In this document: positions 5,916 to 53,187 of the stretch, piece by piece
How positions within the stretch are numbered: the first letter of the stretch is position 1
How the letters are laid out: each line of letters opens with the position of its first letter
DNA from: Candidatus Hydrogenedens sp.
Lineage (GTDB): Bacteria > Hydrogenedentota > Hydrogenedentia > Hydrogenedentales > Hydrogenedentaceae
Assembly (NCBI GenBank): GCA_049968235.1
Contig: JBMFRC010000009.1
Span: 32,001-96,000 of the forward strand
DNA: 64,000 nt
Reading direction: 5' to 3'
Notes under the pieces: generated by a model
What the model was told of the DNA's origin: nothing
Seen by the model: only the letters and a program-made list of their open reading frames with translations
Databases searched by the model: none
Program-made: the position numbers and the translations under genes

Positions 5916-5924
5916 GATAATAGT

Positions 5925-6859: not shown

Positions 6860-6888
6860 TTGACATGATACACTATATATTGTATTAT
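6860..6888 (+). promoter_or_regulatory. Sigma70-like promoter inside the fliE-fliF gap
   Basis: TTGACA (6860-6865), 17-nt spacer, TATTAT (6883-6888); ~100 nt upstream of fliF. Confidence 0.35.
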
Positions 6889-6988
6889 ATAAACAAAAGT
6901 GATCTATTAGTTTGGTTTTGTTTGTTGTGTTACATTAAAATATATACAATAAGTTGATGAAAAATAAAAAGAAATATATAGTGTATTT

Positions 6989-8545: not shown

Positions 8546-8546
8546 T

Positions 8547-9584: not shown

Positions 9585-9592
9585 CAATCAGG

Positions 9593-11597: not shown

Positions 11598-11602
11598 TTG
11601 TC

Positions 11603-12061: not shown

Positions 12062-12099
12062 TTATAAATATATGGTATTGAAACATAGGAAACGAGAAT

Positions 12100-12675: not shown

Positions 12676-12767
12676 AATTCATTCCTTAATAAACTAATCT
12701 AATTCGAATTCAAAACTTATTCCTTGATTTGGTTGAAATATTAACTCTTTTTTTAAGGAGAGGATTT

Positions 12768-14264: not shown

Positions 14265-14276
14265 AGGAGAAATACT

Positions 14277-14903
14277 ATGAATGCAATGGTGCAATTTAAA
14301 TCAAATGTTTTGGGGATAAATTCTCCGACATCTGCTCAACGAACGGAAGTAATCAAAGAAATGAGTTCTTTGTATCAAGCGAAAAGAAAAGGATTACTTC
14401 AAAATTACCTAAAGAAAGTTATTGAATCAACAGATGCAAAAACTTTATCGGTTGCAAAGTCTGTTGATACGCCGTCCACCAGTAATAATACAGGGACAAT
14501 TCGAACTCCATCAAGAGAATTAAGTTCAGATACATTTTTACAATTACTTGTTATGCAAATGCAATATCAAGACCCATTGGAACCTGTTCAAAATACAGAA
14601 ATGCTTGCCCAATTAGCTCAATTTTCAGCACTGGAACAAACCATTAAAACAAATACAAATATAGCATTATTACAGCAAGAAATCCAGACTTTATCCCAGA
14701 ATGTGCAATTTATGTCTATGAACGCCAGTCAACAGATGATTGGTAGATACATTGAAGGTTCTTCACAAGATGGAACATCTGTAAAAGGGAAAGTGGATGC
14801 GGTATCCATTGAGAATGGGACAGTCTTTTTAAATGTAGGTTCGGATAAAGTTCCTATTACTCAGGTTCAAAGTGTCCGAGTAGAACAACCCAATACAAAG
14901 TGA
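14277..14903 (+). CDS. flgD: Flagellar hook capping/assembly protein FlgD
   Basis: ..DTFLQLLVMQMQYQDPLEPVQNTEMLAQLAQFSALEQ.. is the FlgD signature; AGGAG RBS. Confidence 0.85.
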   Translation: MNAMVQFKSNVLGINSPTSAQRTEVIKEMSSLYQAKRKGLLQNYLKKVIESTDAKTLSVAKSVDTPSTSNNTGTIRTPSRELSSDTFLQLLVMQMQYQDPLEPVQNTEMLAQLAQFSALEQTIKTNTNIALLQQEIQTLSQNVQFMSMNASQQMIGRYIEGSSQDGTSVKGKVDAVSIENGTVFLNVGSDKVPITQVQSVRVEQPNTK

Positions 14904-14977
14904 CGAAACATTCATCTGAAATGAAAAGAAGAGTCCTAAATATAAATTAAACCAATAAACCATAAGGAGATATAACT

Positions 14978-16237
14978 ATGGGAATGGCAATGTTAACAGC
15001 AGTAACAGGCTTACAGTCGCATCAACGACGGTTGGATGTAATTGCAAACAATATTGCAAATGTAAACACTGTAGGTTACCGTTCTTCTCGTGTTCTTTTT
15101 CAGGATTTGTTTTCTCAATTGTTAAGAGGTGGTTCTGCTCCGGTAGGGAATTTTGGAGGTTCCAATCCGCAACAGGTGGGGTTGGGTGTGCGTATCGCAA
15201 GTATTGATGTCAATCATCAACAAGGGTCACTTTTGTCTACCGGAGTTTCTTCGGATTTGGCAATACAGGGCAATGGTTTTTTTGTGTTGAGTGATGGACA
15301 AAAAATTGCTTTTACGCGGGATGGCTCCTTTGATTTAAACTCTAATGGGTTGCTTATTGACCCTGCTACTGGTATGCGCGTGCAAGGATATATTGCAGAT
15401 GATACCGGTGTTGTCAATACAGACCAGCCAGCACAGGATATTTCCATCCCCATTGGAAGTGCAGGGATTGTTCGTTCTACTACCAATGTGTATCTTATTG
15501 GAAATCTAAATGCGAATGCTCCTACGACTCCTACTCCAACTACAGTAACAAGGACAGTAGAGGTTTACGATTCTTTAGGTACTGCACAATTGGTAACTTT
15601 ATCATTTACGAAACAGGCAACCCCTGCAAACCAGTGGACATGGGAAGCTTCATACGACGGAAATACTGTAGGTAGTGGAGCATTAACATTTAGTACTTCT
15701 GGCACATTACCATCAGGCACTACAGGAACGATAACAATTCCTGGTGCATTAATGAATACAACAGGTTCTCAACCCAATGATTTAACATTCAATATTGATT
15801 TTAGTGAAATCACTCAATTGGCAACAGATAGTAGCACAGGTAGTGATGTTACAGTTCGTTCACAGGATGGTTTTCCAAGAGGTGTCCTTGAAAGTTTTAA
15901 TATCGGTGCCAATGGTGAAATTGTAGGAGTATTCAGCAACGGACTTACCCGCGTTTTTGCTCAGGTAGCCCTGGCAACATTTTCCAATGTAGGGGGATTG
16001 GTTCGCGATGGGAATAACATGTTCCTTGAAACCCCTGCATCCGGGGTCGCTCAAGTAGGTCCTCCCCGTTCTGGTAGTAGGGGAACTGTTTCCGGTGGTG
16101 TTCTGGAAAGTTCCAATGTAGATTTAGGTACAGAATTTAGTTCTTTAATTGTAACACAACGCGGATTTCAAGCAAATGCCCGAACCATAACTGCTGCGGA
16201 TACACTTCTTCAAGAGACCGTTAATTTAGGTAGATAA
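14978..16237 (+). CDS. flgE: Flagellar hook protein FlgE
   Basis: N-terminal ..NIANVNTVGYRSSRV.., ..GFFVL..; C-terminal ..VDLGTEFSSLIVTQRGFQANARTITAADTLLQETVNL. Confidence 0.85.
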   Translation: MGMAMLTAVTGLQSHQRRLDVIANNIANVNTVGYRSSRVLFQDLFSQLLRGGSAPVGNFGGSNPQQVGLGVRIASIDVNHQQGSLLSTGVSSDLAIQGNGFFVLSDGQKIAFTRDGSFDLNSNGLLIDPATGMRVQGYIADDTGVVNTDQPAQDISIPIGSAGIVRSTTNVYLIGNLNANAPTTPTPTTVTRTVEVYDSLGTAQLVTLSFTKQATPANQWTWEASYDGNTVGSGALTFSTSGTLPSGTTGTITIPGALMNTTGSQPNDLTFNIDFSEITQLATDSSTGSDVTVRSQDGFPRGVLESFNIGANGEIVGVFSNGLTRVFAQVALATFSNVGGLVRDGNNMFLETPASGVAQVGPPRSGSRGTVSGGVLESSNVDLGTEFSSLIVTQRGFQANARTITAADTLLQETVNLGR

Positions 16238-16286
16238 TCTTAATACATGATTTCATTAACAAAAAAATCCTACTAATTCCAAATAA

Positions 16287-16319
16287 GGCTGAGGCTTGAA
16301 AACCTCAGCCTATTTTTTT
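16287..16319 (+). terminator. Rho-independent terminator after flgE
   Basis: GGCTGAGG-cttgaaaa-CCTCAGCC stem-loop followed by tATTTTTTT. Confidence 0.6.
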
Positions 16320-16438
16320 AGTAGAATTGTAATAGCAAAGAGAGATTAAATCATGTTAAAATCAGAGACGAAGAGGTGTTTTATGTTGATGAAAAGAAAT
16401 GAAAATTTCTATATGAATAACATAGAAAAGGGAGTTCT

Positions 16439-17212
16439 ATGGATTTAGCAACTGTAATAGGACTGATTGCAGGTATATCTTTGACACTTATATCTATTCT
16501 GATGGGAGGGTCCATTACAATCTTTATAAATATACCTTCTTTCATTCTCGTTGTGGGAGGGACTATTGCATCTACACTAATTAATTATCCATTGAGCGAT
16601 GTGTTAAAGGTCTTTAATACAGTAAAGAATTCATTCATTCAGAAACTTACACCTGTCGAAACTTTGATTGAAAAGATTATTGAATTTGCCACTATTGCAC
16701 GAAGAGAGGGTATCCTTGCTCTCGAAGGACCTGCATCGGAATTAGACGACGAGTTTTTGCAACGAGGTATACAACTTGCGATTGATGGAACCGCACCCGA
16801 ATTGCTTAAAGACATTCTTACGACAGAATTGGCGTTTATGGAAGATAGACATGCGTTGGGGCAATCAGTTCTTTCTGCGATGGCTGCTTATGCTCCTGCC
16901 TTCGGAATGATAGGAACATTAATTGGTTTGGTGCAAATGCTTGCTACAATGGAAGACCCATCTCAAATTGGTATTGGTATGGCTGTTGCAATCTTAACTA
17001 CATTGTATGGAGCATTAATCGCTAACTTAATTATGTTGCCTCTTGCAGGAAAATTAAAAGTCAGAACCGCAGAAGAACTCCTTTTAAGGGAACTTATTAT
17101 TGAAGGTATTTTATCAATTCAATCAGGAGATAATCCTCGTGTTGTGGAACAGAAGTTAAAAGCATTTATTGCTCCTGAATTGCGAAAACGGATTGTAACA
17201 GGGAAAAAGTAG
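16439..17212 (+). CDS. motA: Flagellar stator protein MotA
   Basis: 4-TM MotA/TolQ/ExbB topology with conserved ..AFGMIGTLIGLVQML.. segment. Confidence 0.85.
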   Translation: MDLATVIGLIAGISLTLISILMGGSITIFINIPSFILVVGGTIASTLINYPLSDVLKVFNTVKNSFIQKLTPVETLIEKIIEFATIARREGILALEGPASELDDEFLQRGIQLAIDGTAPELLKDILTTELAFMEDRHALGQSVLSAMAAYAPAFGMIGTLIGLVQMLATMEDPSQIGIGMAVAILTTLYGALIANLIMLPLAGKLKVRTAEELLLRELIIEGILSIQSGDNPRVVEQKLKAFIAPELRKRIVTGKK

Positions 17213-17218
17213 GACATT

Positions 17219-17956
17219 ATGGCAAAGGAAAGAAAAAAGCAACCTGAAGGAGAAGGGGGAGCCCCTGGATGGGTAGTTACTTACGGAGATATGATGAGCC
17301 TATTACTAACTTTCTTTATTCTCCTCGTATCATTTTCGTCTATTAGTGAAGAAGACTTTAAGAAAGCAATGGGCTCATTGGAAGGCGCTTTAAGTGTGCT
17401 TCCAAAGAATGCAGGTGTTTTAGATTTACAAATGTTGAATCGGAGAGAACAGCAAAGAAAAATGCAGCAGGCAGCACAAAAAATAGCGGAAGAATTACAA
17501 ATTTTGGGACAAGATAAACAGGTCAAGGTAGAATATGATGCAAAAGGAGGAATCAAGATAACCTTTCCTGATTCTGTCTTATTTGATAGAGGAAGTGCAG
17601 ACCTGAAACCCGAGTCTTTTCCTATTATTGAAAGTGTGTCAAAGACATTAGAAGAACTTACGGATGTCTTTGTAGAAATAAAGGGGCATACAGATAATAC
17701 CCCTATAGTGAATAATCCTCGATATAGAGATAACTATGACCTGAGTTATTACCGCTCCGACCAGGTTATGCGTAAAATGCTTTCTATTAGTTCTCTTACT
17801 CCGGAGATGTTTGAAATTACTGCTTGTGGTTCAAGCCAGCCTATATCAACAAATTTAACTGAGGAAGGAAGAAAAGAAAATCGTCGTGTTGAGATTTTCG
17901 TGCGAGGTTTTGTGAGTGAGGAAAAGATGGAAATGATACAAAAGGGTATGCCTTGA
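17219..17956 (+). CDS. motB: Flagellar stator protein MotB (OmpA-like C-terminus)
   Basis: N-terminal ..GWVVTYGDMMSLLLTFFILL.. (MotB plug/TM); OmpA-like ..NRRVEIFV.. at the C-terminus. Confidence 0.85.
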   Translation: MAKERKKQPEGEGGAPGWVVTYGDMMSLLLTFFILLVSFSSISEEDFKKAMGSLEGALSVLPKNAGVLDLQMLNRREQQRKMQQAAQKIAEELQILGQDKQVKVEYDAKGGIKITFPDSVLFDRGSADLKPESFPIIESVSKTLEELTDVFVEIKGHTDNTPIVNNPRYRDNYDLSYYRSDQVMRKMLSISSLTPEMFEITACGSSQPISTNLTEEGRKENRRVEIFVRGFVSEEKMEMIQKGMP

Positions 17957-18022
17957 TTTTATTTTTCAGAATGTGTTTTTCTATTATTACAATGGATATA
18001 AACAGAATAAGGAATAATTTTT

Positions 18023-18571
18023 ATGGCAGATGAAAAACCACCGGAACAACAGGAACAAAAGAAATCATCATCAAGCCTTATAAAATTGCTCCTGATAGGG
18101 GGGGCGAGCGTGCTAATTCCAGCAATTAGTGCAATTGTTGTATTTATGTTTGTTTTACGCCCTATGCTATTAACAGATGACACAGAAGGGAAAGATACAC
18201 CTGCAACTGTTGATACTACTGATGCGATACCTGCAACGGCAGTGATAGTAAAGTTTGATGAGACACAGGCAACGGTAATTACACAAAAGTCAGATGCACC
18301 TGCACCCTTGCTAATTTATCAAGTTGCAATGTCCTGCTCCGGACCCGAGGTATCTGCTGTAATTGAGGGGAAAAAAGAATATTTTACAGCATTGATTAAT
18401 AAAATACATCGGAATCGTTCACGAACCGAACTTAATGACCCCGGTGTCCAGGAAGCATTATTAAGACAGACAAAAAATGAGGCAAATCAATTGTTAAATA
18501 AGTTATCTCCCGGTATTCAGGGGTCTATTCTCGAAGTAATGTATATTAAATATACGATTGTGGACTTATAA
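18023..18571 (+). CDS. fliL: Flagellar basal body-associated protein FliL
   Basis: 182 aa; charged N-terminus, single TM, periplasmic domain; position after motB. Confidence 0.6.
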   Translation: MADEKPPEQQEQKKSSSSLIKLLLIGGASVLIPAISAIVVFMFVLRPMLLTDDTEGKDTPATVDTTDAIPATAVIVKFDETQATVITQKSDAPAPLLIYQVAMSCSGPEVSAVIEGKKEYFTALINKIHRNRSRTELNDPGVQEALLRQTKNEANQLLNKLSPGIQGSILEVMYIKYTIVDL

Positions 18572-18573
18572 TA

Positions 18574-18906
18574 ATGGCTATACAAAATCCCGAAAATATA
18601 TCTGATTTTGTTCCTGATGAAGATTTGGAAAAGGAAACGTCTCCTTCCGCTGTTCATCTAACTCTAAATGATTTAGCAATGATTCCTATTAAGGTGAGTG
18701 CGGAGTTGGGAAGATGCTCTATAAAAATAAAAGATATTCTGAAATTAGATAAGGGGTCTATTGTTACATTAAATAAACAAGCAGGTGAATTGGCAGATAT
18801 ATTTTTTAATGGCATCCTTATAGGTAGAGGAGAGATGATAGTTTTAGCGGACACTTTACATATACGTATAGTTGAAATAGAGGGTTTTAAAAGAGATGAA
18901 GAATAG
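18574..18906 (+). CDS. fliN: Flagellar motor switch protein FliN (SpoA domain)
   Basis: ..IPIKVSAELGRCSIKIKDILKLDKGSIVTLNK..GRGEMIVL.. matches the FliN/SpoA C-terminal domain; 110 aa. Confidence 0.75.
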   Translation: MAIQNPENISDFVPDEDLEKETSPSAVHLTLNDLAMIPIKVSAELGRCSIKIKDILKLDKGSIVTLNKQAGELADIFFNGILIGRGEMIVLADTLHIRIVEIEGFKRDEE

Positions 18907-19705
18907 AAAAAATTTTTTTAGCGTAGTTTTCTTTTTATTCCTGCTATTCTATGGTGTTTATATTTTTGCAGAAAACAATTTTTCATCTGGGAATGACAGT
19001 GTTCTTGACAAATTAAAAGACCCTAAGCAATATGTCGAAAAAAATAATGAAGGCGGTGCCATGTCCACAAAAAATACGGAAGCAGTTCCGGAAAAGGAGA
19101 ATAACCCCTCTAATACGAATACATGGTTTTCCCAACATCAGAAGGTTTGGAGTTCCGAGCAAACAACCACTGGGAATACAGAAGGAGAAAATGTATCTTC
19201 AAATAGTTCCAATACAACGGAGACTTCCTGGATATATTATTTCTTTAGAACACTTGTTGCTCTTATCTTTGTCATCGGTTTAATACTGGTATTATTAGGA
19301 GTACTTCGTTACTTTTCAAACAAAACACATCGAGGGATGAAATCTATTGGAAAAATTGTAGGTGTTCTTTATTTATCTCCGCGTACACGGATTTATTATG
19401 TTCAGGGTGCTGGGAAAGTGTTTGTTCTAGGAGTTTCGGGAGACCAGATGAATTTGTTATTTGTCTTTTCAGAGGATGAATTTTTCGCATCTATTGCAAA
19501 TGAAGATAGTACAGAGTCTTCTTATTCTCAAAAAACATTTAAGAAGGTTCTGGATGATGTAGAAACGAGGATACAATCACAAAGTTCTTCTAAAATGCCC
19601 GAAGTATCAGAGAATATAGACGATGAATTGGCTTCTTTGAAAGTAAATATACAAAGATTACAGCAAGCGATACGAGAAGAAACAAATAATGCATCAGACC
19701 AGTAG
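18896..19705 (+). CDS. fliO: Flagellar biosynthesis protein FliO/FliZ-like
   Basis: Signal-like N-terminus, S/T/N-rich spacer, TM (..LVALIFVIGLILVLLGVL..) followed by ..KIVGVLYLSPRTRIYYVQGAGKVFVLGVSGDQMNLL.. (FliO core); precedes fliP. Confidence 0.55.
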   Translation: MKNRKNFFSVVFFLFLLFYGVYIFAENNFSSGNDSVLDKLKDPKQYVEKNNEGGAMSTKNTEAVPEKENNPSNTNTWFSQHQKVWSSEQTTTGNTEGENVSSNSSNTTETSWIYYFFRTLVALIFVIGLILVLLGVLRYFSNKTHRGMKSIGKIVGVLYLSPRTRIYYVQGAGKVFVLGVSGDQMNLLFVFSEDEFFASIANEDSTESSYSQKTFKKVLDDVETRIQSQSSSKMPEVSENIDDELASLKVNIQRLQQAIREETNNASDQ

Positions 19706-20513
19706 AATTTTTAATATGAGGATAAAAAAAAAGAGTATTTTAAACAATAAAAAAATGGGATTTTTTTTTGTTTGTTTTTCCGTTTTATTGCTATTCGATT
19801 CCTTTGCGCAACCTTCTCGAAATTCAATAACCAATCCCACAGGCATAAATATTGTCGGAACAGCACAGCAAGCAATAGACCCTGAAAATCTATCTACCAC
19901 ATTAACACTGGTAATACTTATTACCGCACTTACATTAGCACCTGCAATTCTCGTATTAACCACATCTTTTACGAGGATAATCGTAGTTCTTGCTTTCCTT
20001 CGACAGGCATTAGCAATACAACAGACCCCTCCCAATCAAGTTTTAATTGGCTTATCTCTATTTTTAACTATGTTTATTATGATGCCAACCTATGAGCGAG
20101 TTAATCGTGAATCGATACAACCTTATATTCAACAGCAAATTAGCCAATCGGAAGCATTTAATCGTGCTTTAATTCCTATCCGCGAATTTATGTTCAAACA
20201 AACAAAGCCTCAGGAACTCAAAACGATGTTGCAAATATCAGGAAGGGGTAGACCCAATACCCCGGATGATGTCCCCACACATGTTCTTATACCTGCTTTT
20301 GTTTTGAGTGAACTTAAAACGGCTTTTATGATAGGTTTTTTATTATATATTCCCTTTTTAATTATTGATATGGTAGTAGCAAGTACATTAATGTCTATGG
20401 GCATGATGATGCTACCTCCAATTTTCGTCTCGTTACCTTTTAAGATAATTCTTTTCGTTCTTGTAGATGGATGGACATTAGTTGTAGGCAATTTGGTAAA
20501 AAGTTTCCAATAG
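19689..20513 (+). CDS. fliP: Flagellar type III export apparatus protein FliP
   Basis: ..TSFTRIIVVLAFLRQALAIQQTPPNQVLIGLSLFLTMFIMMP.. is highly conserved FliP. Real start is probably at the internal MGFFFVCF signal sequence. Confidence 0.9.
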   Translation: MHQTSRIFNMRIKKKSILNNKKMGFFFVCFSVLLLFDSFAQPSRNSITNPTGINIVGTAQQAIDPENLSTTLTLVILITALTLAPAILVLTTSFTRIIVVLAFLRQALAIQQTPPNQVLIGLSLFLTMFIMMPTYERVNRESIQPYIQQQISQSEAFNRALIPIREFMFKQTKPQELKTMLQISGRGRPNTPDDVPTHVLIPAFVLSELKTAFMIGFLLYIPFLIIDMVVASTLMSMGMMMLPPIFVSLPFKIILFVLVDGWTLVVGNLVKSFQ

Positions 20514-42619: not shown

Positions 42620-44308
42620 TCATTTCACAGTATTTTGAAAATAATCACAACATTTTTTGATTTTCTTTGTCATTAATGTTGAACGCTCATATCCGCCTCG
42701 ATAAATATTTAATGTCTGTTTTGCCAATTCCAGTGGATTACTTCCTTCCAGATTATCTCGTTCAAATTTCGTAACAAGGGTAATAGGTTTTAAATATGAA
42801 TTTAATTCCCCATAGATTCGTATTTGTTCGTCAATTTCGGATAATAATTTAACCTGTTCACGTGCTTTTATAATCTTGCTATCCGCTATAGTATTTTTTA
42901 ATTGTTCTGTAATATGAATTCCCTGTTTATATTTTCCCGCCAATTCCTCAAAAGAATTTCGAAATTCCTTGTTCCATACCGCAAGAGTTTTTGCATCGGG
43001 AGTATTATAAAATTGGAAAAATTTGTGAAGATTATCCGATTCTGTTTGTTTATGGGGATTCACATTAAGATGTTCCAGCCACATTAACCGATAGGCAAAG
43101 CGTAGAAAATCTTTCTCATCAATTTCTCGACGAATAACGGGATAAAATTGCAGACAACCATCGGGAGCAAATTCCGAGATATGAACATTTACATTATCCA
43201 TATCGGGTGTAAGTTCATGCTGAATTAATTGTTTCTTCTTACGCGTGGAGAAAAGCCAATCAATTGCTTTGAGGACCTGCTCAGGTTGTATCTTATCTAA
43301 AGGATGAACATCGGAAGACTTTGAAGAAATATCCATCTTAAAAGAACGTTCTCTCATTTCGATAGCACAATTTCCTACGCCATAGGGACCTGTTTCGCGA
43401 AAATGCACATAGCCAACAGACACAAGCATTACAGGACATTTTACTGCCGATGCAAGATGCATAGTGCCTGTATCATTGGTTACTAATAAATGGGAGCGTT
43501 TTAATAATCCTGCCAACTGTGGAATGGTCGTTTTACCAAAAAGCGGAATTGCCAGACCGGGAACTTCCTTTTGAAATCTTTGACCCAATTCCGCTTCTGA
43601 TGGAATACCTACAAGAAATATCCGTGCCCTGCACTTTTCATGTAACTTTTTCCCTAATTGTGCAAAATATTCCGCAGGCCAACGTTTATTCGTTTCACTG
43701 GCACCCAGTTGCATACATACAACAAAATCTTCGGGTGTAATATGATACTCCGCAAAGAGATGGTCTGTAAATTCCATTGCATTAGAATTCACCTCAAAGG
43801 TGAGTTCTTTTACAGGTTCGGGTATCGGTTCATAGAGTTTGAATATATCGCATAAGTTCAAATCATTATAATCCCGAGAAAGAACGCTGGTAAAGAAGTA
43901 AACCGTCCACGGTCCCCGTAATGTGAATTGCCAATCTTCGGATAAATGTGCCCCGATAACTTTAGGAATTTGTGCCAATTTTAATAACAAAGCGGAAGAT
44001 GTGCTGTGAGTTATGTTATAAGCAATATCAAAGTTCCGTTGTCGTAAATCAAGAATTAACTTTTCTACCTCTTTGTATGCATTTAAATATCGGTCTGAAT
44101 CTCTCGCAATCATATCGGAGAAAATGGGGTCTTCTTGATAAATAATATAATCATTTACATCCGTATTGGCTTTAATAACCTCTTCACTCATTGCCCGTAT
44201 CATAACAGTAATATGGGCATCTGGATATTTAATACGAATCTGACGGAATAGGGGGGTGGTCTGAATTGTATCGCCAATCCTTGCAGTTTGCAAAACAAGT
44301 ATTTTCAC
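42620..44308 (-). CDS. Glycosyltransferase family 9 (heptosyltransferase-like) with ~180-aa C-terminal extension
   Basis: ..MKILVLQTARIGDTIQTTPLF.., ..KRWPAEYFAQLGKKL..IFLVGIPSE.., ..HLLVTNDTGTMHLASAV..PVMLVSVG.. GT9 motifs; 562 aa versus ~330-350 for LPS heptosyltransferases. Confidence 0.7.
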   Translation of the reverse strand: MKILVLQTARIGDTIQTTPLFRQIRIKYPDAHITVMIRAMSEEVIKANTDVNDYIIYQEDPIFSDMIARDSDRYLNAYKEVEKLILDLRQRNFDIAYNITHSTSSALLLKLAQIPKVIGAHLSEDWQFTLRGPWTVYFFTSVLSRDYNDLNLCDIFKLYEPIPEPVKELTFEVNSNAMEFTDHLFAEYHITPEDFVVCMQLGASETNKRWPAEYFAQLGKKLHEKCRARIFLVGIPSEAELGQRFQKEVPGLAIPLFGKTTIPQLAGLLKRSHLLVTNDTGTMHLASAVKCPVMLVSVGYVHFRETGPYGVGNCAIEMRERSFKMDISSKSSDVHPLDKIQPEQVLKAIDWLFSTRKKKQLIQHELTPDMDNVNVHISEFAPDGCLQFYPVIRREIDEKDFLRFAYRLMWLEHLNVNPHKQTESDNLHKFFQFYNTPDAKTLAVWNKEFRNSFEELAGKYKQGIHITEQLKNTIADSKIIKAREQVKLLSEIDEQIRIYGELNSYLKPITLVTKFERDNLEGSNPLELAKQTLNIYRGGYERSTLMTKKIKKCCDYFQNTVK

Positions 44309-44310
44309 AG

Positions 44311-46095
44311 TTATTTCTCCCGTAGCAGATTTTCACCAAAAATACGAACTTCATTCAAATACCAGAATACCTGAACAGGTAATGGAACATTATCATCCAG
44401 AATAGGCAAATGTTTATTAATTTCCTCCTGTAAAAAGGGTATGTCCTGAGGTAGTTTTGCAAGCCATTGTCCCAGAGGGCTATCTTTTCCATATCGTTCG
44501 ATGATTTCTCCTACAGTTCTCTGTATACGCATTCCCTTCCTCATGATTTTTCCACCATAATATTCTTTAATATAATCCAACATTTGATTGGCACGGTGCT
44601 CATAAGTATGCTCTTTTAAAGCCCGTTTTTGTGCATTTTGGGCTATCTGCTTTCTTTCTTCTTCATGTTGCAAAAAATAGTCTATTTTATTCCGAAGTGT
44701 TTTTAAGTCTGTATAGGTAGGGATTTCATTTTGAGTATCAAATAAATTTTCTAATCCCTTACAGGGGTCGCAAAGTTGAAATCCACCTGCTGATGCAATT
44801 TCAAATACGCGGGGATTGATAGCATCAGCCTCCGGGTCAACTCCTTCATGAATGACACTGGAATGAAGGTTTAGGTTAATCTTTGACCCAGCCACAATTT
44901 TCATATATTCTTCTGTATTAAACCCTTTATTCCCTTCTACCACATGAGGGAGCAATTCTAATTCATTCCAGTTTACTCCCCATATTTTTAAGTTGTAATC
45001 AGTTAGTCCTTTTAACATCTTAATACGATTATAATATCCTGCCCCTGCAAAGGATAAATCACACCTGTATTTTTTCTCTTCGTCTGGACTTAAAGAGACA
45101 GGTGCATGAAGTTCCGGATCACATGCGGTAAATATAGGGAAATGGCAATTACAACCAATAGCATCCAATTTGTTATCAAACTCTCCGGGTTGAATATGAA
45201 AAAATAAATTATAAAAAGGTGCTATTTCTTTCCAGTAACTAAGGTGCCGCCAGTTCTCCACAAACCAGAATGCAGTTACAATTCCTCGTTCATTCAATCT
45301 TGAAACAAATAAGTTTGTAACGGGAGCCTGCGCCATAACAATACAAATCTCCGGCTGAAATTCTAATACTTGAGCCAGGCACCATTCAGAAAGAAACTTT
45401 GTATAGAAATCTTCAAGCGAATGAGCAATTCGGGTTGTTTTCAGAGTTTTGCCGATAGCATTAAAGACATTCCACGCTATTTCAGTATCTACAAGAAGTG
45501 TTTGATGACCCAATTTCCGAAAAGCCTGATTTAAATATCGAGTAATAGGAAGAGAACCTCCATACATAGGACCTACAATGGCAATGTTGAAGTGTTGTCG
45601 GTTGAAGCATTCCCGGGATATTCGTTTAATTAACATTTCGCAAAATTCAGGATAAATCCGACTTACAACAGGATGGAAAAAAGGTTGAGGTATTTTATCA
45701 AGATAATCATTGAAGAAAGAATCATTAAAAAGGCAATCTAATGTATCAGGAATGGCAAGTAATAGGTCATCAGGTAATAGATTATTTTGAATGGCTGTAA
45801 ATGCTACGTCTTTATCGGGTTCAATGACAATAATTTTATATTCTTTCTGAATGAGTTCCTGGATATGATAACCCAATCCCAGCCCAACAACAACTACAGG
45901 CCGCTTTTTATCCAGAGAAGAACCTTCTACTAATTTTTTGGCTTCCTCTATGGGATTGTATTGGCTGTGATAAAGAAGTCCTGTTATACGAATTGTTTTT
46001 ATACCTTTGCGTTTTTCGACCAATTCAACGCGTTCACTCCTATAATTTTCAGGAATTTCTTTTCTCCATTCTGCAATAGATTTAAACATCTTCAT
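44311..46095 (-). CDS. Two-domain protein: N-terminal Rossmann-like domain (GLGLGYH motif, possibly Maf/MptE-like) + C-terminal CgeB-family (Glyco_trans_1_2) glycosyltransferase domain
   Basis: ..RPVVVVGLGLGYHIQELIQKEYKIIVIEPDKDVAF..; C-terminal ..KINLNLHS..NPRVFEIASAGGFQLCD.. and ..KEHTYEHRANQMLDYI.. CgeB-like. 2-nt gap to downstream GT9 gene. Confidence 0.55.
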   Translation of the reverse strand: MKMFKSIAEWRKEIPENYRSERVELVEKRKGIKTIRITGLLYHSQYNPIEEAKKLVEGSSLDKKRPVVVVGLGLGYHIQELIQKEYKIIVIEPDKDVAFTAIQNNLLPDDLLLAIPDTLDCLFNDSFFNDYLDKIPQPFFHPVVSRIYPEFCEMLIKRISRECFNRQHFNIAIVGPMYGGSLPITRYLNQAFRKLGHQTLLVDTEIAWNVFNAIGKTLKTTRIAHSLEDFYTKFLSEWCLAQVLEFQPEICIVMAQAPVTNLFVSRLNERGIVTAFWFVENWRHLSYWKEIAPFYNLFFHIQPGEFDNKLDAIGCNCHFPIFTACDPELHAPVSLSPDEEKKYRCDLSFAGAGYYNRIKMLKGLTDYNLKIWGVNWNELELLPHVVEGNKGFNTEEYMKIVAGSKINLNLHSSVIHEGVDPEADAINPRVFEIASAGGFQLCDPCKGLENLFDTQNEIPTYTDLKTLRNKIDYFLQHEEERKQIAQNAQKRALKEHTYEHRANQMLDYIKEYYGGKIMRKGMRIQRTVGEIIERYGKDSPLGQWLAKLPQDIPFLQEEINKHLPILDDNVPLPVQVFWYLNEVRIFGENLLREK

Positions 46096-46120
46096 AAGAT
46101 ATGCCTCTTACTTCAATCTT

Positions 46121-49100
46121 TCATAATGATTCCAATCGTTTTAATTCCTTTCCCAGTACATTATCACTCCCAAATAACGCTATATGCTCCTTTATCATAT
46201 TTACTGCTTCCTTTACCCTGTGATGTTGAGATAGGAAAGTCGAATACTTCAGGATAAGTGAAACATCTCCGGGGTAGAAATCTATAAACGCTTTAATTGT
46301 TTGTTCCGCAGATTCGATATAGCCTAATTGTTCGCATACATAAATATATAGGTCAAGAATCCCCGGATAATCATAACTGTTCGAAAAGGCATAATTTAAG
46401 TGTTTATAAGATTCGTGCATATTCCCTGATTGTAAATATCCCTGTCCCATGGCAAGGTGCAGACGAATATTCTCAGGTTCTTCTTGGAATACTTTTCCCA
46501 ATAATTCTAACGCTGTTTGCGTTTGATTCATTGCTAATAATAGCAGTCCATAATCTATATGTAATTCATTATTTTTTTCAATTTCTAATGCTTTCAGATA
46601 ACATTCTTGTGCTTTTACAAGGTTACCCGTGTGAGCATACGCTTTCCCTTCAATACTGTATCGTTTCCATAGAGGCAAGTCGCTTTCTGTTTTTGCAAGT
46701 TCAAATAACAGGTCCGTTCTCCCTGCTTCCAATAATTTGCGAACCTGTTCATTGATTTCATTTATATCCGAAGGGAGTTTTTGTGCAATAACGATATATT
46801 GGAAGGTGCGGAACACCTCATATTCTTCGTCGCTGATTTTATCAATACAAATTTTACCCATGTGTAAATTCCCATTTTCATCACGGGGTATTATGTCCTC
46901 AGATGCTATGGAAAGAGGTCCAATAGCATTAATCAGGAGACCTGTTTTACGAATAAATTCTTGTAAAGTATCTCTCGTGTAAAATTTCAAATGAGTTATA
47001 TCCTGAATTCCGGAATCACGATAGTCCCACCTCCCAAGAGATAAACCAAAAATAACACCCCAATATTGGACATTAGGAATGCTGATGATAACATAACCAT
47101 ACGGTTTTAGATAACGAATTAAATTTCGCAATGCTTTCTCGGGGTGTTCTGTATGTTCTAATACATCACAACAGGTAATTACATCAAAATAATCATTTTC
47201 AAATGGGAAATCATCCTTCTCAATATTTCCAATAAAAACTTTATCTAAAACCTTTTTGGCAATTTCAGCAATGTCAGGTACAATTTCTATTCCTACCACT
47301 TCCTCCACACCCAATTCACGTTTCATTGCTAATCCAAAATTCCCTGTAGCACAGCCAATATCGAGAACCTTTTTTGTCCCATCGGGAATATATTTTAAGA
47401 CCTCTCTTCTCTCAGAAGAGTAATAGTTTATAGGTTTAATTTCCAATCGTTTCGCTTTTGTTGTATCAATCTTGAAAATTTCCTCTACCTTCTTAATAAT
47501 CTGTTGGCACCTATGGTAATAAGTATGACTCTCTAATACCTTTTGTTGTCCCTGCCTTGCGATTTGCTCTCGTTCCTCTTTATGCTCCAGATAATACCGA
47601 ATTTTTTCAATTAAGTCCTTTTCATTTTCATAAATAACAAGATCTTTACCATCCTCAAACAATTCCAGAATACTATCTGCAGGGTCTGTAACTAGTAAAG
47701 CACCTCCTGCCATACCTTCAAATACTCTCATGTTTAAATCGTAATTAATTGCAGAATTCACAACAATTTTACTTCTTGAATACACTTCCCCCATTTCAAG
47801 AGGCCATTTTTTACCAATATAATGATTTGGAAATATTTCGGCTACTTTCATTAATAACCTTCTTCTTTTATCTCCTTCATCAGGCGATAAACTACCTACA
47901 TAAGAAACATCTATGTCACGAGACAATTCTTTTTGGGGATATAGTTCAGGACAACATGCAAGAGGTAGCCAGAAGACATAACGGACACCCTGCTCCTTAA
48001 AAAGTTTGACATGACTTTGTTGAGCCAGAAACACAATGTCAAAATGCTTTGCTATTTCCAACCGTGTTTGAAAGTCCAGGTGGGTATCAATAAGATACGC
48101 CACACGAGGAATATTGAGCATGTCTATCATAGGGTCAACTGTTTTAAGACCGGAATCAACATAGATATAAAAATCTGATGGATATCCTGATGGAATACCT
48201 GCTAAAAGATTCTCTATGCGTTTATCGCCAAAGGAGGTAGGAATCCTTTGCGGAGGATATGGTGGAGGATTTTGAAATCCCCACTTATATAACAAATCTT
48301 CAGGACATCGAAAACCCGATGTTATAACATCATGGTCTTTTTCAAAGGCAAATTCAAAATATCGGGCTGTTGTGTGGGGTGAAGTTATATAATCTAATAT
48401 AATGCGATAGTGCTTTTTCGCTGTTGATGGTTTTGTTATCTGAATAGAAGTGGTTTCTTTTCCACTTTGTTTCAATATTATCTTCTGCCAATTATCAACA
48501 AATTGAGATATAGGAAATTTCTTTTGAACAGTTTCTCTACCTCGTGTTCCTATTTCCCTGGCTAAGTCCGGATTTCCTAAGAGGAGTTCCAGATATTTGC
48601 GTAGCTGTGCTGGGTCAAAAGAAGTAAAGCCATCTACTCCATTTGTAATAGGAGAAGAACGATTGTTTAGAGCAACCACTGGCATACCACAAGCCATTGC
48701 CTCTAATGTAGAAAGATTATATCCATCTTCAAATTCCTGACGGGTGATATGTAATAGACAGCGGTTCAAACGATATGCAGACAGCAATTCTTCAAAGTTT
48801 ATAGATGGCTTTGAATTTTCAACCCCCGGATTTTCTCCCACAATAATATTGGGTAATCCCTTGCAGAGAGCCTCCTGTAATGGGAAATCAAACATCCAGT
48901 TCCGCACCTGCATATAATTGCCTACTCGCAAAATTACTTCTTTACTCCCCGCATAGCCTCCATATTCTTCTATATCAATTCCGGGTAGAACCACATACCC
49001 CGGATAACCATAATCATCTCTTTTAGAAGGGGAAATAAATACGAAAGTGAATCGTTCAGATAGGATATTTATGACCTTCTCAAAATTATTAACAACAAAA

Positions 49101-49426
49101 ACATCGTTCTTTGGGAGTGTTGTTTTCAGATAGGTTTTTCTGTTATGACATACAAGAATTTTAGGGCAATTTGCTTCGCGAATATCCCAGGCATTTGTTT
49201 CATTATGTGCAATAACAATATCATAATAGCCTTTAAAAACTCGTTCCCGCCACTCATTTTCAGGGACTTCATGTAAATTTTCAGGTATAGGTCGAAATTC
49301 CGTTTTCCACTTTCGAGCAAGCAGTCCCTCGCTATATAACCCCAAATCCATCTCAAACCCTGTTTTTGCCATCAAACACATGTAAGGCTCATGAAAATTA
49401 AAGGTTAAGATTTTAAGTTGTCCCAT
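46121..49426 (-). CDS. 1101-aa multidomain protein: GT-B (GT4-like) glycosyltransferase + CgeB-family glycosyltransferase + class I SAM-dependent methyltransferase + C-terminal TPR repeats
   Basis: ..EDGYNLSTLEAMACGMPVVA.. (GT4 C-terminal motif); ..NMRVFEGMAGGALLVTD..KVLESHTYYHRCQQII.. (CgeB); ..KVLDIGCATGNFGL..FDVITCCDVLEHTEHPEKAL..LKPYGYVIISIPN.. (methyltransferase motifs I-III); TPR-like helical repeats in the last ~250 aa. Confidence 0.7.
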   Translation of the reverse strand: MGQLKILTFNFHEPYMCLMAKTGFEMDLGLYSEGLLARKWKTEFRPIPENLHEVPENEWRERVFKGYYDIVIAHNETNAWDIREANCPKILVCHNRKTYLKTTLPKNDVFVVNNFEKVINILSERFTFVFISPSKRDDYGYPGYVVLPGIDIEEYGGYAGSKEVILRVGNYMQVRNWMFDFPLQEALCKGLPNIIVGENPGVENSKPSINFEELLSAYRLNRCLLHITRQEFEDGYNLSTLEAMACGMPVVALNNRSSPITNGVDGFTSFDPAQLRKYLELLLGNPDLAREIGTRGRETVQKKFPISQFVDNWQKIILKQSGKETTSIQITKPSTAKKHYRIILDYITSPHTTARYFEFAFEKDHDVITSGFRCPEDLLYKWGFQNPPPYPPQRIPTSFGDKRIENLLAGIPSGYPSDFYIYVDSGLKTVDPMIDMLNIPRVAYLIDTHLDFQTRLEIAKHFDIVFLAQQSHVKLFKEQGVRYVFWLPLACCPELYPQKELSRDIDVSYVGSLSPDEGDKRRRLLMKVAEIFPNHYIGKKWPLEMGEVYSRSKIVVNSAINYDLNMRVFEGMAGGALLVTDPADSILELFEDGKDLVIYENEKDLIEKIRYYLEHKEEREQIARQGQQKVLESHTYYHRCQQIIKKVEEIFKIDTTKAKRLEIKPINYYSSERREVLKYIPDGTKKVLDIGCATGNFGLAMKRELGVEEVVGIEIVPDIAEIAKKVLDKVFIGNIEKDDFPFENDYFDVITCCDVLEHTEHPEKALRNLIRYLKPYGYVIISIPNVQYWGVIFGLSLGRWDYRDSGIQDITHLKFYTRDTLQEFIRKTGLLINAIGPLSIASEDIIPRDENGNLHMGKICIDKISDEEYEVFRTFQYIVIAQKLPSDINEINEQVRKLLEAGRTDLLFELAKTESDLPLWKRYSIEGKAYAHTGNLVKAQECYLKALEIEKNNELHIDYGLLLLAMNQTQTALELLGKVFQEEPENIRLHLAMGQGYLQSGNMHESYKHLNYAFSNSYDYPGILDLYIYVCEQLGYIESAEQTIKAFIDFYPGDVSLILKYSTFLSQHHRVKEAVNMIKEHIALFGSDNVLGKELKRLESL

Positions 49427-49465
49427 GTTTCCTTTCTATTCTTTTATCTATGAAAATTAAACATT

Positions 49466-50104
49466 TTAGGTTGTTTTAATAATATATTGGATTGCCAATT
49501 GTTTTAACTGACCCACGATTTCAGGTTCTTTTTCTGCAAGAGGAGCTAATTCATATTCCAGCAAGTCCCCAAGACCAATACAATCGTTATTTTCGAGAGA
49601 TTTATATGCTTCCTCAAGAACATGATTCAATTCGTCATGATGTTCTTTTATCTTCCTTATAATAGGATTCTCTTCCGTTACATGGGAACTCAATATATTG
49701 ATTATAAGTGCCTCTCTTTTTTTAATTTCACTCCATATCTCCGAAAGTTTCTGAAAAGGGTCAAATCCTTCATCCGGATTTTCACTCTGAAATACCCGAG
49801 CAATTTCACAACATAAATCACTTAATTCCGGTGAATATAATTCCAAATCCGCAATACCTTCCTCCACCAATTGGTAAATTGGATAGGTATTAATTTCTAA
49901 TGTCCGTATATTAGAGATATTCATTTCTTGAATAGATTCTAATGACCTACCGGGATATACTTCTTGCTCATTAACTCTTAACTTTACCATTGCCAGTTGT
50001 TGACTATTAAGAAAATTCATAATCTCGTTCAGAGCCGATTGAAGTGTATCCGGCGAATTGGAAAATTGAAATCCTTTTACTCCATCAATGAGCACTTCCA
50101 TCAC
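49466..50104 (-). CDS. Hypothetical acidic protein co-transcribed downstream of csrA
   Basis: 212-aa ORF overlapping the csrA stop by ~20 nt; 39 nt upstream of the big GT/MTase gene; no recognisable domain. Confidence 0.4.
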
Positions 50105-50336
50105 GGGGGTCTCCTTTGTTGGGTTGGAAAACGGGAATATCCTTCGGGGGTTCTACCCGTGCTGCCTCTTCATTTTCCGCTTTGATTGATAGATATACCT
50201 CTTTCCGATGAACAGGAATAGAACGCGGTGCTTCTATCCCTATTTTGACCTGATTTTCCCGTAATTCAAGCACTTTGATTTCGATATTATCGCCAATCAT
50301 TATGCTTTCATCTTCCTTACGCGTAAGCACAAGCAT
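50085..50336 (-). CDS. csrA: Carbon storage regulator CsrA (flagellin translation regulator)
   Basis: [48 protein letters not shown] is canonical CsrA; AGGAGG RBS; start 1 nt after the fliW stop. Confidence 0.9.
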
Positions 50337-50337
50337 A

Positions 50338-50796
50338 TTAGACCTCCTGTCTATTAGTTGGTTGTTCATTTTGGGGTTGCGCAAGGAACCATTGAACAGG
50401 GTAATCCGTTCTGTCCAATACCATTTGCTTTGCTAACCTTGTTTTTGTATTTATTACAATGGGGGCTCTTAAATTTGTCCGGATTTTGGTCGGGTCTTCC
50501 GGAACCACAAGTAATGTATATATGGAAATCTCCTGAGGAGAATCGGCTTGTAATTCATGTAAATCCTGGGGAGTAAAAGAAACCTGATAATCTGGCAAAA
50601 CCTGCAAAGGTTCTAACAAAAGAAAAGCCAATGCACCATCTTCTATAGACTGAAGCCACCAAAGAGGGCTATCTTTAGGTCCTGGCAATAACATAAACTT
50701 CTGACAATTCTGAAATCCTAAAATAGGTTTTACAAATAGAAGAATTTGATTCTCATCAATTTCTATCTCACCGAATCGTGTTGTTTGTAGTTTCAT
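50338..50796 (-). CDS. fliW: Flagellar assembly factor FliW
   Basis: ..[46 protein letters not shown].. and ..[20 protein letters not shown].. match FliW. Start taken at internal MKLQTT; the ORF track extends upstream to 50943. Confidence 0.85.
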
Positions 50797-51460
50797 ATAA
50801 TTCTGTTCATTCCTTTTTGTTTTCAGTATGCAATATTTTATTTTACAATAACAACTCATTATTATAAAAATGTGTAATATCAAATAAACATTTGTAAAAT
50901 ATATCGATATATAATATAATTTACACTTAAATGTTAACATCAAGGAAGTAGTGTGTTTGGAGAAGAAAACCAGATATTGATAAAGGAGATGTTAAGATGC
51001 GACATACTGAAAAAGTAAATGATTAAAAAGAATATAATGCGTTTAAAGAACTTATAAAAGAAAACTTATCAAGGCAGTGGATGATGAGGATTATGAACGG
51101 TTGAAGTTCATATTCTCTATGTTAGAAATGCTTTTCCAGATAAAGGAAAGACTTAATATTTCAGAGAAAGAGAGCAATGAGTTTGATGAACAAGAATTAG
51201 AAGTGATAGAGACGGAAACAGGCAAAGATGTTAAAAAGAACAGAAAGAAAAGAAGTAAACCCTCAGAGGATAAAAAGGATGAAATTCAAGAAACGAAAGA
51301 AGATATGGGTAAAGAAAATATAATTGAAGAAGAGGAAGATGTAATTAAAAAAGAAGCGGTAACATAGGAAGAGGAGAAATCATCAAAGAAAAAGCAATCT
51401 CCACCAGAGAAATTAGCTCGCGGTTTAAAAACACCTGAAAGAGCCTATGTCCTACCGGTA

Positions 51461-51868
51461 GTGGATTCCTTAATGGAATTTGGGGGAACTGCTCCTCGAA
51501 AAGAAGTTGTCACAAGGGTATTTGAAAAAATGAAACATATCTTAAAAGATTATGATTTAGAACCCATGTCATACAATAAATATGTCCCTCGCTGGAAAGA
51601 TACTTTACATTGGGTAAGATTACACTTACTTGAAAGGGGAATCCTTGAGAAAGGAACTGAAAAAGGTATTTGGACTTTAACAGAATATGGTAAAGCCTAT
51701 TACGCTATGCACAAAGATAGAACAGAAGAAAAGAAAGAGGTTGATATTCCTCCATACTCCGAAAAAAGTGAAGAAATGACTAGTGAAGGAACTTTTTCTG
51801 CTCCCGAAAAGCAGGAAGAAAATATAGAACATAACATTAGTGAACCAAGAGATATCTTAAATCAGTAG
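51461..51868 (+). CDS. Winged-helix (Mrr_N-like) domain protein, probably N-terminally truncated; in frame with upstream ORF 51077..51367 across a single TAG
   Basis: ..YVLPVVDSLMEFGGTAPRKEVVTRVFEKMKHIL..VPRWKDTLHWVRLHLLERGILEKGTEKGIWTLTEYG.. matches the Mrr N-terminal wHTH. The first conserved strand (AYVLPVV) lies upstream of the GTG at 51461. TAG at 51365-51367 is in frame. Confidence 0.45.
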   Translation: MDSLMEFGGTAPRKEVVTRVFEKMKHILKDYDLEPMSYNKYVPRWKDTLHWVRLHLLERGILEKGTEKGIWTLTEYGKAYYAMHKDRTEEKKEVDIPPYSEKSEEMTSEGTFSAPEKQEENIEHNISEPRDILNQ

Positions 51869-52458: not shown

Positions 52459-53187
52459 TTAGAGTTTAATACCATGTTCTTTAGCAACGAGAATATTAGA
52501 ACGGAGCAGTGCTTCGAAACTACCACAATCTGCCCACCAACCTTCTAAAACTTCATAAGTCATTGTTCCCCGTCGAATATACTCATTATTTACATCTGTT
52601 ATTTCCAATTCACCACGTGCACTGGGTTTCAATGTCTTACAAATGTTAAACACATCCGCATCATACATATATATTCCGATGACTGCATAATGGGTCGGTG
52701 GAACTTTAGGTTTTTCTATAATCTCTTTCACTTTTCCATTCTCTACTATAGCAACCCCAAATTCCTGGGGATTGGGGACTTCTTTTAAAAAAATCTTTGC
52801 ACCGCAATCTTGTTTTTCAAAATCATCTACTGCATTCTTGATACTACCCTGCGTAAAGTTATCACCAAGGATAACTACCACTTTATCTCCACCAACAAAT
52901 GGTTCTGCAAGTTTAAGAGCATGAGCAATTCCCCCCTCTGTTTTCTGATAAGTATAATGAAGTTGATGTAATCCAAAATCTTCACCATTCCCTAATAACC
53001 GAAGAAAATCTCCCGCATTATTCCCACCTGTAACTATCATAATATCTTTAATACCCGCATCTACAAGTGTTTGTATAGGATAAAAAATCATAGGTTTGTT
53101 ATATACAGGCAATAAGTGCTTATTAGTTACGCGAGTTAATGGTAATAATCTTGTTCCTAAACCTCCAGCCAGGACAACACCTTTCAT
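52459..53187 (-). CDS. Sugar-1-phosphate nucleotidyltransferase (short RmlA/NTP_transferase family)
   Basis: ..MKGVVLAGGLGTRLLPLTRVTNKHLLPV.. signature; 242 aa. Confidence 0.8.
   Translation of the reverse strand: MKGVVLAGGLGTRLLPLTRVTNKHLLPVYNKPMIFYPIQTLVDAGIKDIMIVTGGNNAGDFLRLLGNGEDFGLHQLHYTYQKTEGGIAHALKLAEPFVGGDKVVVILGDNFTQGSIKNAVDDFEKQDCGAKIFLKEVPNPQEFGVAIVENGKVKEIIEKPKVPPTHYAVIGIYMYDADVFNICKTLKPSARGELEITDVNNEYIRRGTMTYEVLEGWWADCGSFEALLRSNILVAKEHGIKL

Follow-up and report, generated by a model that had tools for sequence, protein, structure and literature searches.

A 64,000-nucleotide stretch of the genome of a Candidatus Hydrogenedens sp. (GenBank assembly GCA_049968235.1, contig JBMFRC010000009.1, forward-strand positions 32,001 to 96,000; "the window" below means this whole stretch) carries six consecutive open reading frames (ORFs) on its minus strand, from 50796 to 42620. 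In the order of transcription they encode FliW, CsrA, a DUF8042 protein, enzymes of 1101 and 594 residues and an extended glycosyltransferase of family GT9, and we refer to them together as the cassette. An earlier reading of the bare sequence, the original prediction, had described them as a near-gapless, same-strand operon that is a candidate for flagellin modification. All six ORFs were present, with gaps of 1, –17, 39, 25 and 2 nucleotides between consecutive genes, and Pfam matches agreed with the domain make-up proposed for FliW, CsrA, the two large enzymes and the GT9 enzyme. The third gene does overlap the end of csrA and was rightly left as an unknown, but its length needed correction: rather than 212 residues from GTG 50104, the likelier product has 211 residues from ATG 50101 (MEVL..., the start seen in homologues), a start that has GGAG ahead of it and gives a 17-nucleotide overlap with csrA. 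The features discussed below are as follows (aa, amino-acid residues; TPR, tetratricopeptide repeat; SAM, S-adenosylmethionine).

50825..50854, minus strand: promoter-like element TTGT-N18-(TTG)CATACT, the window copy (motif comparison across loci)
50797..50824, minus strand: probable 5' leader of the operon, with GGA in the Shine-Dalgarno region (AAAGGAAT; leader comparison)
50338..50796, minus strand: fliW, 152 aa (Pfam FliW, PF02623, 1.2e-35)
50085..50336, minus strand: csrA, 83 aa, FliW-antagonised type (Pfam CsrA, 1e-26)
49466..50101, minus strand: DUF8042 protein, 211 aa, proposed adaptor (precomputed PF26154)
48437..49426, minus strand: 1101-aa protein, aa 1-330, GT4-like module (Glyco_trans_1_4 at aa 213-283)
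47477..48409, minus strand: 1101-aa protein, aa ~340-650, DUF3880 plus CgeB-type glycosyltransferase (Glyco_trans_1_2, 6e-44)
46907..47449, minus strand: 1101-aa protein, aa ~660-840, class I SAM-dependent methyltransferase (Methyltransf_23, 4.5e-24)
46121..46729, minus strand: 1101-aa protein, aa ~900-1101, TPR domain, candidate acceptor-binding module (TPR_14, TPR_2, TPR_19)
45601..46095, minus strand: 594-aa protein, aa 1-165, Rossmann domain with GLGLGYH (profile matches to KsgA/Dim1)
44311..45588, minus strand: 594-aa protein, aa ~170-594, GT-B fold (GT4-like, CgeB-type) plus helical tail (Glyco_trans_1_2, 3e-37)
43244..44308, minus strand: 562-aa protein, aa 1-355, GT9 domain (Glyco_transf_9, 1.4e-26 at aa 83-310)
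42620..43243, minus strand: C-terminal extension of the GT9 protein, ~200 aa (tblastn conservation; no Pfam match)

Operon structure, conservation and the region upstream of fliW

Shine-Dalgarno-like sequences precede most of the cassette starts, with AGGAGG ahead of csrA. A transcript ending before 49466 had been raised as a possibility, and no terminator-like site was predicted between the six genes; the generic promoter and terminator scan concerned was set aside, because it returned no more sites than in shuffled sequence. Neither transmembrane-type hydrophobic segments nor signal peptides were found in any of the six proteins, and the lack of transmembrane segments fits the expectation for cytoplasmic protein glycosylation. 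A flagellar operon lies in the same window at 5514-20513 on the plus strand (flgB, flgC, fliF, the fliG/H region, fliI, fliK, flgD, flgE, motA, motB, fliN, fliO and fliP), which indicates that the organism is flagellated. The cassette thus has the form of a single, conserved transcription unit; its products are soluble and its host is flagellated.

Scanning one genome per species with a 42-sequence DUF8042 alignment gave 80 loci (cited by L numbers where one must be told from another), and mapping the window proteins onto these left 65 distinct loci in which DUF8042 was at least 30% identical. The fliW-csrA pair lay directly upstream of the DUF8042 gene in 55 of the 56 loci with enough room upstream, and among the 43 loci with room downstream the 1101-aa gene was found in 41, the 594-aa gene in 38 and the GT9 gene in 37. 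Orthologous neighbourhoods carried the six genes in identical order, with flanks like those of the window within the genus and unrelated flanks outside it. Three loci stopped after the 1101-aa gene and one consisted of fliW-csrA-DUF8042 alone; another (L059, 14018-15942) had two additional genes, of 428 and 213 residues, between the 1101-aa and 594-aa genes. Most of the loci are labelled Hydrogenedentota, and the Nitrospirales or FCB group labels on some metagenome-assembled genomes (MAGs) are unconfirmed. Since the six genes recur in the same order in dozens of species, about 60 in Hydrogenedentota, the arrangement is not due to chance. Flagellin glycosylation islands and their closeness to fliW-csrA are already known; the direct fusion of fliW-csrA in one operon to a set of non-Maf enzymes, conserved across a phylum, appears undescribed, in keeping with the original view that this is not a described canonical locus.

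Upstream of fliW, 58 distinct loci (in the range L003-L079) shared the phylum-wide motif cTTGC-N~14-TTnGTG-CATACT, which may also be written TTGC-N-GTGCATACT or TTGC-N~14-TTnGTGCATACT. The CATACT part was unvarying in all 58, and the median distance from the end of the element to the fliW ATG was 38 nucleotides. The form TTGC-N15-21-GCATACT was present in 55 loci, a single time in each and in every case upstream of fliW, and TGCATACT occurred once in the 64-kb window. The upstream sequences that bear the motif ranged from very AT-rich to very GC-rich. Two known promoter types were considered and rejected for this region, as a sigma-28 consensus was present in only 2 of 56 loci and a sigma-54 consensus in none of the 56. 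This invariant promoter-like element also appears undescribed.

A GGA motif was present in 53 of the 58 fliW leaders, usually within the ribosome-binding region. Seven leaders (L014, L020, L021, L023, L025, L027 and L040) contained AGCAnGGATGCCGGAGTG, in which GGA occurs twice: one copy belongs to the Shine-Dalgarno sequence, and the second is embedded in AGCAnGGATGC, a context similar to that of CsrA sites. Because of this resemblance, CsrA may bind the fliW leader and so autoregulate the operon.

FliW and CsrA themselves are clear members of their families. FliW scored 122.4 bits against the 25-bit cut-off of PF02623, and NCBIfam FliW models matched it at up to 2.6e-41, yet under their equivalog cut-offs. 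CsrA scored 93.1 bits with Pfam and 93.5 bits with NCBIfam NF002469 (cut-off 73 bits). Its translation shows R6, E46, N55 and a C-terminal extension, placing it in the FliW-antagonised subclass: N55 and the extension are the features tied to antagonism by FliW, and R6 and E46 are RNA-binding residues (PMC11934962). In both respects, the adjacency of the two genes and a CsrA with N55 and a C-terminal extension, the window resembles the FliW-CsrA-flagellin partner switch of B. subtilis, C. jejuni and C. difficile. Unlike the genes of those systems, the window pair is not beside flagellin or flgK/flgL, heads an operon of enzymes and has its own phylum-invariant promoter-like motif.

Domain make-up of the DUF8042 protein and the three enzymes

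The DUF8042 annotation comes from a precomputed PF26154 match, and relatives of the protein also show a weak match to PF27299 (TP0873_N). Pfam and NCBIfam scans up to E ≤ 10 gave no match to FliS, FliT, FlaG or any other family. The AlphaFold model (mean predicted confidence, pLDDT, 90.6) consists of a beta-grasp domain (residues 1-75) followed by a four- or five-helix bundle (residues 76-209), and fold searches against PDB returned generic four-helix bundles and ubiquitin-like domains only. Conserved residues cluster in one motif of the helix bundle, with DLL[EQ]YELAP common to distant homologues. An exhaustive profile search put the family at 306 clusters, almost all of about 205 residues; no literature on DUF8042 or TP0873 was found.

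A comparison suggests itself with GlfM, an 89-residue four-helix-bundle protein that serves as the adaptor of Maf-2 toward flagellin (bioRxiv 10.1101/2023.12.03.569772). As in the GlfM-Maf-2 systems of Shewanella and Kurthia, a small soluble helix-bundle protein is encoded beside a glycosyltransferase that has no acceptor-binding domain of its own, and DUF8042 fits the description of GlfM as a small soluble four-helix bundle encoded beside a flagellin glycosyltransferase. Both have conserved acidic residues in their last helices (D77 and E80 in GlfM, the DLLEYE motif in DUF8042). The likeness is one of description, not of sequence comparison: GlfM (SO_3260) has 89 residues, whereas DUF8042 has about 205 and an added beta-grasp domain; the GlfM gene usually lies downstream of maf-2, whereas the DUF8042 gene lies upstream of the enzymes; and the partner enzymes are Maf in the one case and non-Maf in the other. 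By analogy, DUF8042 is probably an adaptor.

The 1101-aa enzyme joins four modules. Its GT4-like module matched models of the EpsE/BshA type and, in PDB, TreT. DUF3880 was located at residues 456-513 and Glyco_trans_1_2, of CgeB type, at residues 522-644; this CgeB-type module is paralogous to the glycosyltransferase module of the 594-aa enzyme, and the two cassette proteins belong to the CgeB type (PF13524 with DUF3880) with scores of 149.9 and 128.2 bits. The methyltransferase module (residues 675-830) matched Methyltransf_23 at 85.5 bits, Methyltransf_11 at 7e-17 and PDB entry 3CC8 at 1.7e-32, and the profile together with motif I (GxGxG) makes it a class I SAM-dependent methyltransferase. 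TPR repeats were matched by Pfam at about residues 910-1008. Some species have a large enzyme without one or both glycosyltransferase modules: the CgeB-type module is apparently missing from the orthologues in L062 and L071, and in L067 (10628-11986) the large enzyme is a 452-residue protein with the methyltransferase and TPR part only.

Two precedents suggest a flagellin-binding role for this TPR domain. FlmG is described as binding flagellin via its TPR domain (PMC7591256, as cited in bioRxiv 10.1101/2023.12.03.569772), and Maf-1 recognises flagellin through a TPR domain (bioRxiv 10.1101/2023.12.03.569772). The 1101-aa protein has in common with both that it is soluble and joins a TPR domain to glycosyltransferase modules, and by this analogy we infer that its TPR domain may bind flagellin. 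The catalytic parts differ, being GT4-like, CgeB-type and methyltransferase modules here, GT41 in FlmG and a Maf domain in Maf-1. Pfam gave no match to Glyco_transf_41 in the 1101-aa protein, which thus lacks the FlmG-type combination of TPR with a GT41 (O-GlcNAc transferase-like) domain.

The 594-aa enzyme has hundreds of full-length orthologues of about 590 residues at roughly 50% identity, and the CgeB-type profile was matched by 75 of 75 members of its family; DUF3880 was matched as well. In the predicted structure (pLDDT 93.5) residues ~170-520 form a complete GT-B fold. Foldseek searches with the model were dominated by GT4 enzymes (1e-10 to 1e-7), and the N-terminal domain was for that reason examined by sequence profile instead. 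A family profile of this domain matched KsgA/Dim1-type SAM-methyltransferases in PDB at 5.6e-7, in an alignment that covers the GxGxG motif, the acidic residue that follows strand 2 and the motif IV region; no solved Maf chain was listed at E ≤ 10. Maf_flag10_N (PF20157) matched residues 52-99, at the GLGLGYH segment, below threshold (22.6 bits against a 23.5-bit cut-off) and was matched at E ≤ 0.01 in 12 of 75 family members. Because the KsgA/Dim1 match was at 5.6e-7 and Maf_flag10_N was found in only 12 of 75, the domain looks most like a Rossmann domain of the methyltransferase kind that is related to the N-domain of Maf. No flagellum-related literature on DUF3880 was found among titles and abstracts.

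The GT9 enzyme is distinguished by its C-terminal extension: in tblastn its cassette orthologues align to about residue 550, at 43-48% identity in distant species. A PDB sequence search (E ≤ 1e-3) returned only 3TOV and WaaF (1PSW). The heptosyltransferase II model TIGR02195 scored 104.4 bits against a cut-off of 134.6, and other heptosyltransferase models fell far below theirs. The enzyme shares the GT9 fold and Pfam family with WaaC, WaaF and WaaQ as well as with TibC/AAH; it differs from the Waa enzymes in lying under every curated cut-off for lipopolysaccharide (LPS) heptosyltransferases and in its conserved extension of about 200 residues. A closer kinship to the TibC/AAH protein heptosyltransferases, which had been suggested, found no backing in sequence matches to solved TibC-type enzymes, no fold comparison having been made.

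Flagellin loci in other phyla and the surroundings of the cassette

Flagellin genes were sought by tblastn with B. subtilis Hag, a query that readily detected flagellins in phyla other than Hydrogenedentota. Flagellin lay within about 6 kb of DUF8042 in 7 of 15 loci outside Hydrogenedentota: five genomes of Firmicutes and one each of Desulfobacteraceae and Spirochaetaceae encoded a distant DUF8042 homologue (22-30% identity) 2-4 kb from flagellin. The genes of Phosphitispora sp. TUW77 were arranged flgK-flgL-x-fliW-csrA-flagellin-flaG-fliD-wHTH-DUF8042-Maf-Maf-PseB-like-epimerase-PseC-like (wHTH, winged helix-turn-helix), followed by a 580-aa protein with Maf_flag10_N (4.6e-11), DUF3880 and Glyco_trans_1_2. 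This is the architecture of the 594-aa enzyme, to which the Phosphitispora protein aligned co-linearly at its N- and C-terminal parts.

The Phosphitispora and Thermincola loci thus contain, as the cassette does, a DUF8042 gene and a protein combining a Rossmann domain, DUF3880 and a CgeB-type glycosyltransferase. More generally, the Firmicute loci (the Maf/Pse islands of these two genera and the C. difficile F1-F2 arrangement) resemble the cassette in having fliW-csrA in the neighbourhood of flagellin glycosyltransferases, and in including methyltransferase functions, among them a glycosyltransferase that also methylates sugars. Methyltransferases are common within flagellin glycosylation islands; the C. 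difficile locus, arranged fliW-csrA...fliC-GT (GT, glycosyltransferase), carries out type B flagellin glycosylation with a bifunctional glycosyltransferase that also methylates. The Firmicute loci differ in that flagellin, flaG and fliD stand between fliW-csrA and the enzymes and that Maf and nonulosonic-acid biosynthesis genes dominate, whereas the cassette is without filament, Maf or sugar-biosynthesis genes and joins fliW-csrA directly to DUF8042 and the enzymes.

In a Desulfobacteraceae MAG (L081, 3707-9942) we found a WbdD-like kinase/methyltransferase, a 934-aa TPR-GT41 protein, a 593-aa protein with the same architecture as the 594-aa enzyme, DUF8042 and a convergent flagellin gene; here an FlmG-like protein stands beside both DUF8042 and flagellin. 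A Desulfovibrio contig carried an extended GT9 gene (537 aa) immediately before DUF8042. In Spirochaetaceae, flaB-flaB-flaG-fliD was followed by a gene for a 297-aa protein with DUF8042 at its C-terminus, and the Pfam name TP0873_N points to a protein of this type in Treponema. This cross-phylum tie of DUF8042/TP0873 to flagellin loci appears undescribed.

Several genes surround the cassette. Upstream of it and on the same strand lies a short gene (52459-53187, minus strand) for an RmlA-like glucose-1-phosphate thymidylyltransferase, below equivalog cut-offs, whose product could provide a nucleotide sugar. An alginate-export-type porin gene lies convergent and just downstream in the Hydrogenedens genus. 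These two genes and a nitroreductase gene were not counted as parts of the cassette, because they are kept beside it within the genus only. Divergent from fliW is an apparently degraded Mrr_N-domain gene (51030-51868, plus strand), whose matches to the 301-aa orthologue in L003 are partial and divided between two frames. Just 5' of the flagellar operon, 3734-5321 (plus strand) encodes a response regulator whose GGDEF domain is weak, together with a GNAT acetyltransferase, and inside that operon 12100-12675 weakly matched FlbB, the collar protein of spirochaete periplasmic flagella (63 bits; cut-off 110 bits).

Possible functions of the cassette

We believe, with moderate confidence, that the cassette is a cytoplasmic module for flagellin glycosylation and methylation that is co-transcribed with the FliW-CsrA switch; flagellin as the target protein is itself inferred. 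This reading is supported by the flagellated host, by the conservation of the unit across the phylum, by the occurrence of DUF8042 and of the 594-aa architecture at loci for flagellin glycosylation in other phyla and by the solubility of the products, and the same four lines bear out the candidate flagellin-modification operon as first proposed.

The steps of such a module can be outlined as follows. Flagellin that has not yet been exported would be recognised in the cytoplasm by the 1101-aa enzyme's C-terminal TPR domain, as in FlmG and Maf-1. The GT4-like and CgeB-type modules of this enzyme would start and extend an O-linked glycan of one or more sugars, while its SAM-methyltransferase module would methylate the glycan or a flagellin side chain. 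The GT-B module of the 594-aa enzyme and the extended GT9 enzyme would elongate or branch the glycan. For the enzymes that have no TPR domain, DUF8042 may form the bridge to flagellin, free or in complex with FliW, in the role that GlfM has for Maf-2. Through transcription together with fliW-csrA, and perhaps through CsrA acting on the GGA leader, the supply of enzymes would be matched to the cytoplasmic flagellin pool.

Several observations weigh against flagellin modification. The tblastn search detected no flagellin gene in the window, and none within 10 kb of the cassette at any of the Hydrogenedentota loci, so that the comparison of neighbourhoods for co-occurrence with flagellin, called for at the outset, bore out the expectation for DUF8042 and the 594-aa architecture in other phyla and failed to do so in the phylum itself. 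No sugar-nucleotide biosynthesis gene was found in the cassette by Pfam. The Maf/MptE catalytic domain (PF01973), which had been suggested as a lead, had no Pfam match in any cassette protein; the genuine Maf genes in L082 match this domain with E-values of 1e-36 to 1e-45. Two related Omnitrophota-like MAGs (L074, 8024-10624; L077, 7718-10624) have their DUF8042-like gene after a gene for a polytopic membrane protein of 611-630 residues, the two such proteins being 83% identical to each other and without a Pfam match, and there are no flagellar genes near it. The spirochaete relative of DUF8042 has no adjoining glycosyltransferase, and for this reason DUF8042 may be a filament factor, not a glycosylation factor. 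To these points are added the best named models for the GT9 protein, which are the LPS heptosyltransferases I, II and III (below cut-offs), and the fact that CsrA acts as a global regulator in many bacteria.

The last two points also bear on the alternative that the three enzymes build or modify a glycan of the cell envelope, such as LPS core or a capsule- or exopolysaccharide-like polymer, under the motile-sessile control of FliW-CsrA, flagellin not being the acceptor. In other bacteria CsrA governs the synthesis of polysaccharides, the GT4- and CgeB-type modules are of a kind generic to polysaccharide enzymes, and the GT9 matches in PDB, 3TOV and WaaF, lead in the same direction as its best named models; every one of the heptosyltransferase models, however, stayed under its curated cut-off. 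The convergent alginate-export-type porin just downstream would suit an envelope function, but this neighbour is conserved within the genus only. The cassette is also without a priming transferase, flippase, polymerase, exporter or transmembrane segments, its CsrA belongs to the flagellar, FliW-antagonised type, and elsewhere the genes found near DUF8042 and the 594-aa architecture include flagellin, fliD, Maf and Pse. We regard this alternative as unlikely.

Slightly less likely still is a division of the cassette into two separate functions, in which DUF8042 is a filament-assembly factor or chaperone-like regulator working with FliW-CsrA, and the transferases modify the hook, cap, sheath, a pilin or another flagellar or secreted protein. 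The genes fliS and fliT are usually located after fliD in gene order. In Firmicutes DUF8042 occupies this position, in Spirochaetaceae the DUF8042-containing gene follows fliD with no adjacent glycosyltransferase, and one Hydrogenedentota locus consists of fliW-csrA-DUF8042 only, all of which is compatible with a separate role. DUF8042 nevertheless had no FliS or FliT match at E ≤ 10, and its fold searches gave generic bundles only. The gene order likewise ties it to modifying enzymes: directly after DUF8042, 41 of 43 Hydrogenedentota loci have the 1101-aa gene and 5 of 5 Firmicutes loci a gene that matches the Maf_N-like N-terminal part of the 594-aa protein (in L082 this gene is a Maf by Pfam), while the extended GT9 gene of Desulfovibrio lies directly before it.

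Least probable is that the cassette is a historical remnant of an ancestral fliW-csrA-flagellin-...-glycosylation locus that lost its filament genes, its adjacency being without regulatory meaning: Firmicutes do keep the fuller order fliW-csrA-flagellin-flaG-fliD-DUF8042-GTs, and C. difficile the arrangement fliW-csrA...fliC-GT, but the retention of gene order, overlaps and a single invariant promoter-like element despite upstream sequences that range from AT-rich to GC-rich and flanks that change argues for selection on co-expression. This alternative bears on origin more than on function and is compatible with flagellin as the target.

Beyond the flagellin-modification module, we can propose only tentatively that DUF8042 is a new cross-phylum adaptor of filament biogenesis that physically links non-Maf glycosyltransferases to the complex of FliW with flagellin. 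In that case glycosylation would form part of the FliW-CsrA checkpoint, with a dedicated, phylum-invariant promoter and possible autoregulation by CsrA.

What is understood of flagellin glycosylation comes mainly from the Maf- and FlmG-type sialyltransferases of a few cultured bacteria. The cassette represents a compact, phylum-conserved set of enzymes of a different type, GT4, CgeB and GT9 plus a methyltransferase, and it bears on two questions in the field: by what means enzymes that have no TPR domain locate flagellin, and when modification takes place with respect to the synthesis and export of flagellin. On the first, DUF8042/TP0873 is a candidate new adaptor family that occurs beside flagellin in Firmicutes, Desulfobacterota and Spirochaetes and within the fliW-csrA cassette in Hydrogenedentota. 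On the second, the modification enzymes are fused genetically, and directly, to the genes of the FliW-CsrA translation switch, which suggests that the synthesis and the modification of flagellin are under joint control.

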